Part shown: one piece after another, positions 4,583-7,116 of the stretch
Position numbering within the stretch: the stretch's first letter is position 1
Layout: each line of letters starts with the position of its first letter
DNA from: Pseudomonas phage Ph_15
DNA: 43,260 bases
Direction: 5' to 3' (one strand)
Sequence record: PV845595.1
The notes under the pieces: generated by a model
The model's input: the letters and a program-made list of their open reading frames with translations, nothing else
What the model was told of the DNA's origin: nothing
The model's database searches: none
Position numbers and translations under genes: made by a program

Positions 4583-6572
4583 CCCCAGCGAACCCAATAT
4601 TAATAGCTTTGTCTATACCCAGAGGGTAGATGAGCTATTGAAGGCCCATCTTAAAAAGATCCTGGACTTTTCCAAGACTAATAAGGCCAACTACATTCAG
4701 AAGATGGACCTGATTGATAAGGCCTATGCCCGGTATATCACTGCTCAGGAGAACAATGAGCTATTGGGCTATAATCAGAATATTGCTGCCAAGGTTCGTT
4801 GCCAGGTAGTCAATAAGGCTACGGTTAACCCAATTGTAATTAGTCAGGTCCAGTCTATGACTGCCTACTTGACTGAAGTCTTTGCTTCAGGCTACCCTAT
4901 TCTCCCTGTAGTCTCCACTCCGGATAAGAAAGAGCAGGCTGAAGCCCTGGAAGGGATTATCCAGGATCACATGACCATGACCAGTTCTATCCCAGAATTG
5001 ATCCTCTGTCTCCAGGATGCAGCTAAATATAACCTGGTTGGCTGGGAAACTGAGTGGTCCCATATCGAGACCTATGATCCTCAGACGGAGATAACTGATC
5101 TTGAGCCAGGGAAGACTACCCTACGGCGCAATTACAGGCATGTGAATAAGATCCGGCGTCTAAATCTGCGGAATGTCCACTGGGATCCTATTCCTGATAT
5201 TCCCAATGTGGCCACTGAAGGATCATTCCTAGGGGAAACTACTCTCCTTAATCGAATTCAGCTTAAGAAATACCTGAATTATCTAACTAATGAGAAGAAG
5301 TTGACCTATAAGAAAGTAGTCAATGAGGCCCTCAAGTCTTCTTTCCAAGGATCAGACTGGACGGATAACCCGCAAATTAGCCCCGTCTACCAAGAAATGG
5401 AGATGGCCTCAGATATTAACTGGGATAGATTTGGCGGGTTTGAGACTGAGACTTCGTCAACCAATCGTCGGGTACCAGTTAATGAGCAGGGAGTCTACTG
5501 CAAGCACACTATGTATCTGAGGATTATTCCCTCAGACTTTGAGATGAATGTCCCTAATCGCAACCAGGTTCAGATCTGGAAAGCAGTGATGATTAACAGG
5601 GATGCAATTATCTCCTTCGAGCCTTATATCGGAGCCTATGGTTCCTTTGGAATGGGATTAGCATTTGCCCTGGAAGATGGCATGGGGTTACAGACTCAAG
5701 GCTACGGAGAAATGGCTGCTCCTCTCCAGTCTGCTACTACTGAACTCTGGAATGCTTATATCCAGGGAGCCAGGCGAGCAGTAATGGATCGAGCTCTGTA
5801 TAATCCGAGCATGATCCGAGCTAACGATATTAACAGTCCGATTCCTCAGATTAAGATTCCAGTCGTCCCCCAGTCCCTAGTCAATGGAACTATGGATCAG
5901 GCTTATAGGCAGATTCCCTTTGATTCTAGAGGGATGGAAACTGTAATGCAGAATGCCCTAATGCTAACGGACTGGCAGCGGGAACTCAGTGGAATGAACT
6001 CTGCTACACGCGGACAGTTCCAGAAAGGGAATAAGACTAGAGCTGAGTTCGACACTATCATGGGCAATGCTGAGAATCGGATGCGCTTGCCTGCCCTGAT
6101 TCTAGAACATAGGATGTTCACTAAGATTAAAGAGCAGCTTAAGCTTAATCTCCTCATGTACGGAGAAGACACTGAGGTAATTAGTCCTCGAACTGGCAAA
6201 GGAGTTCGGGTTGATATTAAAGAGCTTCAAGATCTTGGTCTTAAGTTTGAGCTAGGGGATGGTCTTACTCCTGCTAGCAAATTAGCCAGCAGTGATTTCC
6301 TGACTGCTCTGCTTCAGATGATTATGTCCTCGGAGACTACTCTACAGGCATTCGGAACTCAGGTACCTGGAATGATTGCTCATCTGGCTCAGCTGGGTGG
6401 GGTACGAGGATTCGAGAAATATGCTGATGCTGCTCTGCCTCAGTGGCGGATTACTTATGGTATGCAGCAGCAACTTCAGCAAATGCTCCTGCAATTACAA
6501 CAGCAATCTGCAATGCAGCTACAGGCTCGACAAGGAGAATTGAGTAATGATCAGTCTCAACCATCTCAATAA
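4572..6572 (+). CDS. Portal protein.
   Basis: 666-aa ORF directly after terL, start overlapping the terL stop, Q-rich C-terminus. Identification is by size and synteny. Confidence 0.7.
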   Translation: MAISPSEPNINSFVYTQRVDELLKAHLKKILDFSKTNKANYIQKMDLIDKAYARYITAQENNELLGYNQNIAAKVRCQVVNKATVNPIVISQVQSMTAYLTEVFASGYPILPVVSTPDKKEQAEALEGIIQDHMTMTSSIPELILCLQDAAKYNLVGWETEWSHIETYDPQTEITDLEPGKTTLRRNYRHVNKIRRLNLRNVHWDPIPDIPNVATEGSFLGETTLLNRIQLKKYLNYLTNEKKLTYKKVVNEALKSSFQGSDWTDNPQISPVYQEMEMASDINWDRFGGFETETSSTNRRVPVNEQGVYCKHTMYLRIIPSDFEMNVPNRNQVQIWKAVMINRDAIISFEPYIGAYGSFGMGLAFALEDGMGLQTQGYGEMAAPLQSATTELWNAYIQGARRAVMDRALYNPSMIRANDINSPIPQIKIPVVPQSLVNGTMDQAYRQIPFDSRGMETVMQNALMLTDWQRELSGMNSATRGQFQKGNKTRAEFDTIMGNAENRMRLPALILEHRMFTKIKEQLKLNLLMYGEDTEVISPRTGKGVRVDIKELQDLGLKFELGDGLTPASKLASSDFLTALLQMIMSSETTLQAFGTQVPGMIAHLAQLGGVRGFEKYADAALPQWRITYGMQQQLQQMLLQLQQQSAMQLQARQGELSNDQSQPSQ

Positions 6573-7116
6573 GAAGCGCCTAATCGGATTCCATGGTCCT
6601 TATGGATCAGGAAAAGATACCTTGAGTACCCGATTAGCTGGGATAATTAATGCTACGGTTGATAGAGTTGCAGCCCCTCTGTACCAGATGGCAGCGGCTA
6701 TTGATCCTACCTTCCGGCCAGATATGCCTCACTCGGCTAAGAATGGCTATGTTCTCGGGAATTCAGCCCTGGGAACTAGGCGAGCTTTCCTGGAGAAAGC
6801 AGGGACAGACTTTGCCCGAGATATGATTAATCCGGACTTCTGGATTATCCTCCAGGACATGCGCTGGAAAGCTTCGATGAGAAGTATGATCATTGCTGAT
6901 ATCCGGCCCAAAAATGAGCAAGACTGGCTATTGCGCAATGGTGGAATTCTGTTCCATCTTAAGCCTGGGTGGGACAATCAGACTAATGAAACCGGCCACC
7001 GGATTAGTTCTCCTTTGAGCATTCAGAATCCTGAACAGGAGTTTGAGATTCCTCTGGTTTGGAATGATATCCAGGGCGCAATGAAGATTATCCAGGATCG
7101 ACTAGGATTGTCTTAG
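6547..7116 (+). CDS. Deoxynucleoside monophosphate kinase-like P-loop kinase (T4 Dnk / gp1 family).
   Basis: N-terminal GFHGPYGSGKDT matches the GxxRSGKDT P-loop of T4 dNMP kinase. The following AAPLYQMAAA resembles T4 AGPIKDALA. Strong SD (AAGGAGAA) embedded in the portal 3' end. Start overlaps the portal gene by 26 nt. Confidence 0.55.
   Translation: MISLNHLNKKRLIGFHGPYGSGKDTLSTRLAGIINATVDRVAAPLYQMAAAIDPTFRPDMPHSAKNGYVLGNSALGTRRAFLEKAGTDFARDMINPDFWIILQDMRWKASMRSMIIADIRPKNEQDWLLRNGGILFHLKPGWDNQTNETGHRISSPLSIQNPEQEFEIPLVWNDIQGAMKIIQDRLGLS

Follow-up and report, generated by a model that had tools for sequence, protein, structure and literature searches.

A T4 gp1-type deoxynucleotide kinase gene and a conserved RNA hairpin between the portal and capsid genes of Jamesmcgillvirus phages

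Gene 1 of phage T4 is an early nucleotide-metabolism gene of a phage whose DNA has hydroxymethyl-C, and its product gp1 (Dnk; 1DEK/1DEL; PF21448) is a deoxynucleoside monophosphate (dNMP) kinase. A gene of the same family lies in the window analysed here, i.e., the whole 43,260-nt stretch of Pseudomonas phage Ph_15 (record PV845595.1), where it occupies positions 6547..7116 of the plus strand, between the portal gene and the capsid genes, and is followed by an intergenic region (7117..7291) that carries a long RNA hairpin. T4 Dnk accepts dGMP, dTMP and hydroxymethyl-dCMP (hm-dCMP), and the T5 dNMP kinase uses each of the four canonical dNMPs (PMC10653934). A further T4-like member, PP_1964 (dNMPK-Pp), is encoded in a prophage-like island that disrupts tmk of Pseudomonas putida; it provides the essential thymidylate-kinase activity of that bacterium and complements tmk of E. 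coli (PMC10653934). Since the T5 and P. putida enzymes act on canonical dNMPs, the presence of a DNMK gene is no indicator of modified DNA. The T5 enzyme and PP_1964 belong to the same dNMPK sub-tree, and the window kinase shares with PP_1964 a Val144-to-Arg change (R91 in the window kinase) that narrows the pocket. Unlike the window kinase, however, neither the T5 enzyme nor PP_1964 has been reported beside a portal gene or in front of a conserved RNA hairpin; and unlike gene 1 of T4, the window gene sits in a head operon, in a phage without recognised modification enzymes.

The hairpin, too, has counterparts in kind, namely the RNase III sites of T7 and the sib retroregulator of lambda. It resembles them in being a long, imperfect, unbranched and intercistronic hairpin with internal loops, which is part of a co-directional transcript and lies at a boundary between differently expressed genes. 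It is, however, about twice as long as the T7 sites, and unlike the T7 and lambda hairpins it carries in its loops invariant motifs (AGCGUUAAGC... / ...GCGUAGC), which are met again in its 5' flank. Further, it matches no curated RNA family by sequence or by model.

Over the 5.2 kb around the kinase locus, identity to 15 deposited podophage genomes of Pseudomonas aeruginosa is 96.5-98.7%; these genomes, among them PaP2, Neko, PaMx41 and 119X, are classified in the Fredfastierviridae, genus Jamesmcgillvirus. Hence, the window is a Jamesmcgillvirus of the PaP2/119X/PaMx41 type. The best explanation for the locus as a whole, with a probability somewhat above even, is that an ordinary dNMP kinase is expressed along with the portal and that a new RNA element, which acts in cis, precedes the capsid genes. 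What is unusual is thus not the enzyme family, but the fixed position of the gene and the previously undescribed conserved hairpin; indeed, the hairpin travelling with the kinase is the most novel element of the locus.

The kinase gene and its family

The first-pass annotation of the window had proposed a 189-aa open reading frame (ORF) at 6547..7116, which the sequence confirms. The encoded protein has the N-terminus MISLNHLNKKRLIGFHGPYGSGKDT, and the gene overlaps by 26 nt the 3' end of the SU10-type portal gene (4572..6572, plus strand, 666 aa), which matches the portal family phrog_15554 with 1617 bits and whose relatives match PF23899 (SU10_portal). The Shine-Dalgarno sequence of the kinase gene, read from the sequence as AGGAG (6533..6537, plus strand), lies inside the portal ORF as had been noted at first pass, 9 nt before the ATG, and the PaMx41 record carries an annotated ribosome-binding site at the equivalent position. 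A promoter scan predicted no sigma-70-type promoter in front of the gene. Across seven genomes of the clade, 40 codons of the kinase gene show synonymous variation only as against 4 that change the amino acid, a ratio close to those of the portal (126:14) and of the major capsid protein (MCP; 89:7), which identifies a real gene under purifying selection. All 15 deposited relatives encode the protein with 98.9% identity or more, and in the GenBank and RefSeq records of the clade it is throughout called either 'hypothetical protein' or 'putative nucleotide triphosphate hydrolase'.

The kinase is a member of the T4 gp1-type dNMP-kinase family, an assignment already made at first pass and now supported by several comparisons. 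In PHROGs, residues 1-182 of the protein match phrog_139 ('deoxynucleoside monophosphate kinase'), with E 3.8e-34. A profile of 88 homologues recovers T4 Dnk from the PDB at E 8.1e-31, through both the P-loop half and the C-terminal half, as compared with E 1.6e-10 and the P-loop only for the next-best PDB match; further, 87 of the 88 aligned homologues match PF21448 (DNMK). Two segments of T4 Dnk compared by hhalign with the family alignment reach probabilities of 99.2% and 97.6%, the latter alignment joining the P-loop and the following FAxPL-type helix to residues 2-50 of T4 Dnk, which bears out the earlier impression of a T4 gp1-like GxxRSGKDT-type P-loop and helix. An AlphaFold2 (AF2) model built on the family alignment (mean predicted local distance difference, pLDDT, 93.6; predicted template-modelling score, pTM, 0.87) has as its best Foldseek match in the PDB 1DEK_A (E 1.9e-6; template-modelling score, TM, 0.68 on the query). 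The predicted fold thus concurs with PHROGs and with the PDB profile search, and naming the enzyme is a routine annotation gain.

Single-sequence searches are less informative. Neither T4 Dnk nor anything else relevant was found when the kinase sequence was run with phmmer against PDB sequences, and the matches of a word-index homologue search were confined to its own clade. On account of these failures profiles are needed for the family call: the profile check suggested with the first-pass annotation leads to the DNMK family, whereas the same protein as a single sequence stays below the Pfam threshold. An exhaustive HMMER search gathered 1,381 representative homologues, mostly of 170-200 aa, among which 64 protein clusters, scoring at least 180 bits with a subfamily profile, stand apart from the remaining family (at most 123 bits). 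This closest subfamily, with at least 64 protein clusters, comes mostly from uncultured phages of ~41-46 kb, and kinase identity is 38-52%, as compared with 47-51% for the portal and 37% for the scaffold. Two giant repetitive proteins, P0026 (2099 aa) and P0028 (1693 aa), also appear among the kinase homologues; their 22 and 12 repeats match approximately residues 29-84 of the kinase, i.e., the helix after the P-loop and the segment that follows it.

Residues were compared by reading the hhalign mapping against the contact table of 1DEK (Table 2, PMC10653934). Like T4 gp1, the window kinase has the GxxxSGKDT P-loop, the FAxPL helix, an R-x6-GT motif, a D-x-R-x3-E motif and the lid histidine. 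The columns that are invariant in the 88-sequence alignment (G17-P-Y-G-S-G-K-D-T25, R79, D118, R120, E124 and H151) map onto T4 residues, with the P-loop positions S12/G13/K14/D15/T16 (T4 numbering) all kept. The four T4 base contacts T140, D175, R177 and E181 correspond to T87, D118, R120 and E124 and are identical in every case; other positions kept are R132 (R79), M135 (L82), D141 (D88), W152 (W99) and H206 (H151), while R11 and V144 of T4 are replaced by G20 and R91. Unlike T4 Dnk, with its 241 aa, the 189-aa window kinase does without an insertion of ~68 residues, and the AF2 model is without the inserted helical segment. These features suggest that the kinase is very probably an active enzyme, for which dTMP and dGMP would be the most probable substrates.

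In functional terms, the kinase would most likely convert dNMPs, derived from salvage and from the breakdown of host DNA, into dNDPs for phage DNA synthesis. The G+C content of the phage is ~45% and that of P. aeruginosa ~66%, so that a phage kinase of the dTMP/dGMP type would make metabolic sense; the phage requires proportionally much more dTTP and dATP than host DNA supplies.

Position in the head module and evolutionary history

The first-pass annotation regarded a kinase between portal and scaffold as positionally odd, and a survey of other family members agrees. At 79 other viral loci with kinase homologues, the closest flanking gene of 180 aa or more was taken from either side, and the resulting 129 genes were compared with PHROGs. 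The commonest neighbour families are exonucleases, a DNA-repair exonuclease, integrases, repressors, primases and a polymerase subunit, and there is no head or packaging family among the top 25 families at these 79 loci. The head-module position is thus atypical for the DNMK family. A locus with the kinase homologue in the 'expected' position is found in the contig L052 (2105..9129), whose replication module is akin to that of the window (exonuclease, Sak4-like ATPase, DNA polymerase and primase, at 28-35% identity) and has the Sak4-like ATPase and the DNA polymerase on either side of the kinase homologue.

Within the subfamily, the arrangement is rigid. The order small terminase subunit (TerS), large terminase subunit (TerL), portal, kinase, gap, ORF of ~100 aa, ORF of ~245 aa and MCP is common to the metagenomic loci L002/L082/L085, L086 and L087, where tblastn identities to the window are 56-61% for TerL, 47-51% for the portal, 55-59% for MCP and 37-44% for the kinase. 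It is also kept in all nine further contigs, which come from diverse members of the subfamily and are mostly 36-46 kb in length. Altogether the order is fixed in 13 of the 13 diverged lineages examined and present in all 15 deposited genomes of the clade. In each of the 13 lineages the distance from the portal stop to the kinase start falls in the range of -32 to +27 nt, and the gap downstream of the kinase measures 148-210 nt wherever the next ORF was called. A portal-anchored scan of metagenomes yielded two loci only.

Two deposited phages served as outgroups: Polaromonas phage Tiera and EBPR podovirus 3, the portals of which are 38% identical to that of the window. In both, a small ORF directly follows the portal, with a spacer of 9 nt or an overlap of 8 nt, and the kinase (searched at E up to 1e-5), the gap and the hairpin are all absent. 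Being shared by diverged lineages and lacking in both outgroups, the kinase and the hairpin can be viewed as one old, fixed insertion of ~750 bp. On comparison of these gene orders, a single ancient insertion of kinase plus gap between the portal and the small ORF looks like the simplest history, with loss of both from the outgroups as the alternative. An ancestor would thus have gained the kinase and the hairpin as one unit of ~750 bp between the portal and the next head gene, and the unit would have stayed.

Such a history bears on the earlier suggestion of a moron-like insertion. Classical morons are sporadic among close relatives and come with their own promoter and a U-tailed terminator. 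The window locus is like them in having an extra non-structural gene amid conserved head genes, which outgroups do without and which is followed by a 3' stem-loop. Unlike them, however, it is fixed in all 13 lineages, is coupled to the portal stop codon and has no predicted promoter, and its stem-loop is 118 nt long, conserved in sequence and without a U-tract. The suggestion therefore holds in a deep evolutionary sense, given the absence from two distant outgroups, but fails for a recent moron, an identity ruled out by presence in 15 of 15 clade genomes and 13 of 13 lineages, by the absence of a sigma-70-type promoter upstream and by the absence of a U-tailed terminator downstream.

The other suggestion, of a kinase whose expression has to go with that of late genes, agrees with the synteny; the head cluster of PaMx41, however, is classed as 'middle-late'. 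A 2026 preprint, following the PaMx41 transcription map, places MCP in the 'middle-late' and the tail-side gp23 in the 'late-late' class. The head cluster, and presumably the kinase with it, would therefore be on during DNA synthesis, and because the 'middle-late' phase overlaps with DNA replication, the location of the kinase is less paradoxical than the term 'late gene' suggests. In the favoured scenario, the kinase would be translated from the same message as the terminase and the portal, with its start coupled to the portal stop, and on account of this coupling could be made in low, catalytic amounts; its production would presumably fall in the 'middle-late' phase, when replication and packaging run together. 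A whole phage lineage thus has a metabolic gene fixed in its head operon, which makes the locus a clean case for asking why a nucleotide-supply enzyme is dosed and timed with packaging proteins.

The intergenic hairpin and the capsid cassette

The 175-nt intergenic region (7117..7291, plus strand) had been described as structured at first pass. Its predicted fold reaches -81.5 kcal/mol (z = -6.7 against 200 dinucleotide shuffles, none of which folds as well), in agreement with that description. The region has four variable sites across seven clade genomes; identity to all 15 deposited relatives is 98.9% or higher, and none of them has it annotated. It is dominated by a conserved, unbranched RNA hairpin of ~118 nt (7151..7268, plus strand), identified by fold, covariation and covariance model, in which helix P1, an asymmetric internal loop, P2, a 5x3 internal loop (GUUAA/GUA), P3 and an apical stem follow one another. 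The hairpin alone has a predicted energy of -68.4 kcal/mol (z -6.7), as compared with -51.2 kcal/mol for the reverse strand; this asymmetry of 17 kcal/mol, together with the G-U pairs, points to a transcript of the plus strand. In the minimum-free-energy (MFE) fold it is flanked by two small hairpins. The one on the 5' side (7124..7145, plus strand) contains the motif GAGAUUCG, kept in 8 of 10 lineages, with a motif of the UUAGCG(U/A)AGCG type after it. The one on the 3' side (7269..7287, plus strand) holds in its 3' arm the GGAG Shine-Dalgarno sequence of the next ORF (7283..7286); it is weakly supported and conserved in part only, an AUCUAAUCGG motif being kept in about half of the lineages.

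Conservation of the long hairpin exceeds that of its surroundings. Among the seven clade genomes it varies at one of 117 positions, as against 7.6-8.6% in the adjacent genes, and the sole variant, A7160G, turns an A-U pair into a G-U pair. With a covariance model based on four lineages, each genome yields a single copy, at the same spot, with 121-140 bits on the plus strand as compared with 18-24 bits on the minus strand. The model extends to six more lineages (E 3e-10 to 1e-27), with plus-strand scores of 49-140 bits over all ten, and has no match in 80 other kinase loci. Covariation was assessed on a ten-lineage MAFFT alignment, not fitted to any structure, from which RNAalifold derived the consensus. 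This consensus has 33 pairs, 16 of them with compensatory double changes, and 91.5% of cells in the paired columns can pair, as compared with 37-47% when partners are slid by one to three columns. The covariation score is 0.382 as against at most 0.121 in controls, and none of 500 shuffles reaches the observed value on any of five measures. Further, single-sequence folds of five lineages give the same hairpin layout. What does not vary is the 5x3 internal loop together with the pairs that close it (UAGC-GUNNA-GC / GC-GUA-GCU) and a portion of P3, and the 5' flank carries the related AGCG(U/A)AGCG and GAGAUUCG motifs.

Searches beyond the subfamily returned little. In Rfam 15, the best scores were 15-20 bits, for unrelated families with gathering scores of 35-92, and nothing was found even at E up to 10. 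The gapped pattern ATACGGG-N70-100-CCCGTGTMWAAG occurs at 24 loci in viral contigs, 21 of which are chance matches without the internal motifs and the fold, and a block pattern of the hairpin has zero matches in 185,579 prokaryotic genomes. The hairpin is hence well supported as a structured RNA, is absent from every database and is a candidate for a new Rfam family.

Two conventional roles were considered and rejected. An intrinsic (Rho-independent) terminator is not reported here by the terminator scan, and the stem is not followed by a U-run, the following sequence being AUUCUGAUCUAAUCGG. An origin or another DNA-level role finds no counterpart in the GC skew, which changes sign only at the two boundaries of the transcription arms and has no replication-type inflection at 7.2 kb.

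The hairpin is followed by three genes. A small all-helical ORF of 122 aa (7292..7660, plus strand; phrog_15136, unknown function) comes next; its single-sequence AF2 model is helical but of low confidence (pLDDT 62), and word search found no homologues outside the clade. It shares a (N/S/Q/D)P-x4-Y(L/I)K motif with the post-portal ORFs of the outgroups Tiera and EBPR podovirus 3 (L126 4537..4794 and L127 5146..5385), and this positional plus weak sequence conservation suggests that it is the same gene as Tiera_006 and EBPR3 gp6; it appears to be an ancestral gene of the head module. The second gene encodes a scaffold-like protein of 248 aa (7666..8412, plus strand; phrog_16263), for which position and a Gln-rich N-terminus suggest the scaffold role and whose PaMx41 counterpart, ORF10, is flagged as a virion 'structural protein'. 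The third encodes the SU10-type MCP (8427..9683, plus strand; PF17236 at E 4e-27, phrog_1328), after which the terminator scan predicts an intrinsic terminator with an 11-bp stem and a T-run (9713..9739, plus strand); the PaMx41 record has a terminator annotated at the equivalent site. The hairpin and this terminator bracket the three-gene capsid cassette.

This arrangement provides the context in which a role for the hairpin can be proposed. It would work in cis on the plus-strand RNA and mark a boundary between genes of low-copy products (TerS, TerL, portal and kinase) and the high-copy capsid cassette (small ORF, scaffold and MCP). Its mode of action would most likely be that of a cis-acting processing or stability element, i.e., a site for a double-strand-specific nuclease and/or a protective 5' stem-loop, which is the most economical reading given that the boundary separates genes whose products are needed in few copies from the scaffold and MCP, needed in hundreds. 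The hairpin has ~43 pairs in three helices, which is compatible with an RNase III-type site (at least ~20 bp of near-continuous double-stranded RNA). The invariant internal loop suggests a specific protein partner and could probably serve as its recognition site. The small ORF downstream was considered as an autoregulator that binds the hairpin; it gave no PDB match, sub-threshold Pfam matches only and no NCBIfam or PADLOC match, and it is also present in outgroups without the hairpin. The element offers a route to understanding how these phages set the ratio of capsid to packaging proteins.

Competing explanations and other features of the genome

A number of observations weigh against the combination of an ordinary kinase and a cis-acting processing element favoured above. 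On the side of the protein, the kinase sequence alone scores 21.6 bits against Pfam DNMK, below the gathering score of 27.1 and over residues 79-140 only, and it has zero matches in NCBIfam, where the want of a matching model accounts for its PGAP labels. Several T4 contacts are replaced: K37, which contacts the dNMP phosphate, by Y46; R197 and N223, which contact the ATP base, by P140 and L170; and E209 by S154. Further, the insertion that is missing from the kinase (T4 residues 55-122) carries R68. The specificity for donor or acceptor may therefore differ from that of T4. In the 88-sequence alignment R197, N223, K37 and R68 are T4-specific and not family-wide invariants, and Y46 and P140-x-W142 are invariant in the closest subfamily. 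Additionally, the host has its own nucleoside monophosphate (NMP) kinases and the outgroup phages manage without the gene, which leaves the benefit of the kinase unproven. As for the hairpin, there is no U-tract after it, its loops are more strongly conserved than a simple nuclease site or stabiliser needs, and three of the 13 lineages (L116-L118) carry at the same place a long hairpin which goes unrecognised by the covariance model and is counted here as analogous, not as a proven homologue.

In other explanations the kinase does something else. One takes up the T4-like scenario of the first-pass annotation, in which a dNMP kinase, a MazG-like pyrophosphatase and a base-modifying enzyme would together alter the DNA: the kinase would feed a modified dNMP, made by a phage protein, into DNA, and the MazG-like enzyme, in the role of T4 gp56, would clear the canonical competitor. 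PaMx41 resists type I-C, II-A and V-A CRISPR-Cas, including Cas9 and Cas12a, by a mechanism not given, while it is only ~10-fold sensitive to type I-F and sensitive to Cas13a (Cas13a engineering paper), and DNA modification would explain the resistance. The acceptance of hm-dCMP by T4 Dnk (PMC10653934) and the subfamily-invariant Y46 and P140, at T4 substrate and ATP contact positions, are consistent with this idea, as is the fact that ~70% of the genes have no known function. The MazG-like gene is indeed present on the minus strand (25260..26150; phrog_16522 and phrog_229), as had been recognised earlier, though it has no match in Pfam or NCBIfam, and no evidence for a functional link between it and the kinase was found. 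Its two neighbours singled out at first pass as uncharacterised (24380..25000 and 25027..25281, together 24380..25281) match only clade-specific PHROGs of unknown function. A Pfam and PHROG scan of 20 minus-arm ORFs recognised Acb2, a Sak4-like ATPase, an exoribonuclease-like domain and the MazG-like protein; in agreement with the earlier failure to see a known base-modifying enzyme, it revealed no hydroxymethylase of the thymidylate-synthase fold, no transferase, no deazaguanine or aminoadenine enzyme and no other modifying enzyme, and none is named in the annotations of Neko or PaMx41, including the 2024 GenBank annotation. Moreover, the four base-contact residues are those of the T4 enzyme, which also takes plain dTMP and dGMP, and in T5 and P. 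putida the enzymes of the family supply canonical DNA. PaMx41 is also restricted by a resident type I restriction-modification system, from which it escapes by site mutation, and its DNA was tagmented, amplified by PCR and sequenced with a standard Illumina kit. The T4-like scenario is thus not borne out, and modification as the source of CRISPR resistance is improbable. The same low standing applies to the broader proposal in which the subfamily phosphorylates a non-canonical deoxynucleotide, the modified DNA gives PaMx41 its CRISPR resistance, and the hairpin is a new cis-regulatory RNA tying capsid output to that unit. Alternatively, the P-loop NTPase could have been recruited, in a non-metabolic role, for head assembly or DNA packaging with the portal and the terminase, as linkage and coupling to the portal gene in all 13 lineages, the subfamily-specific replacement of the ATP-base (R197, N223) and phosphate (K37) contacts, and a rate of evolution about that of the portal and scaffold (see the identities above) might suggest. 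However, a non-kinase role would not require the four base contacts and the NMP-binding helix motif to be kept; the PaMx41 record flags the portal, ORF10, MCP and ORF13 as virion proteins but not the kinase (ORF8); and the outgroups, with homologous portal, scaffold and MCP, build heads without it, so that such a recruitment has little to recommend it. An equally slender chance attaches to the kinase being mainly a counter-defence or pool-rescue factor, which would sustain dNTP synthesis when defences or host shut-off deplete nucleotides. The clade does carry Acb2 (24097..24390), and absence from the outgroups is the accessory status typical of anti-defence genes; yet the kinase matches no defence-related model (P-loop noise only), has no published link to defence and is fixed across the clade, unlike most anti-defence genes, which are variably present.

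For the hairpin, the alternative to a cis-acting processing or stability element is a DNA-level signal, such as a single-strand initiation site or a promoter, or else a stand-alone non-coding RNA acting in trans in assembly or packaging. The conservation of the loop and flank sequences goes far beyond the needs of pairing, G-T wobbles are tolerated in single-stranded DNA too, and the element adjoins the portal gene. Additionally, five of the ten lineages (L124, L120, L086, L087 and L122) have in the 5' flank, corresponding to window 7125..7160, a weak sigma-70-like arrangement TTGA(T/G)A-N17-TTATAC, with TTTGCA as the -35 variant in L122. The window itself has no sigma-70-like site there, with GAAGAA in place of the promoter-like -35, and the -10-like part is the 5' arm of helix P1, whose changes are compensated in the opposite arm, which favours pairing. 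The GC skew, without an inflection, speaks against an origin; the terminator scan found no terminator after the hairpin that would define a discrete small RNA; and neither phi29 pRNA nor any other Rfam family is matched. A DNA-level or trans-acting hairpin is hence unlikely, if a little less so than the departures from an ordinary kinase just discussed, and a cis-acting element on the plus-strand RNA remains the preferred reading.

The plus-strand arm of the genome carries the terminase, portal, head, lysis and tail genes, and the minus-strand arm the replication genes with many unknowns. At the exact convergence of the two transcription arms lies an inverted repeat (24044..24102) with 26-nt arms and a 7-nt loop, which is probably a bidirectional terminator. 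The adjoining minus-strand gene (24097..24390) encodes a full-length Acb2 sponge of 97 aa (PF24729 at E 3.5e-18), which counters the cyclic-oligonucleotide-based antiphage signalling system (CBASS). Full-length Acb2 is the form found in naturally CBASS-resistant relatives such as PaMx33, PaMx35 and PaMx43, that of wild-type PaMx41 being truncated to 37 aa; PaMx41 is a working model phage for studies of CBASS and Acb2 and for Cas13a editing. In the PaP2 genome, the RefSeq label 'putative head assembly cofactor' is attached to NC_005884.1 2970..4580 (window 2972..4582), which is the gene of the large terminase subunit (PHROGs, E 7e-63); the label was considered in connection with the kinase and is irrelevant to it. 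Finally, two long intergenic inverted repeats lie in the replication arm, at 29758..29836 (26-nt arms, 85% complementarity) and at 42226..42329 (22-nt arms, 91%).

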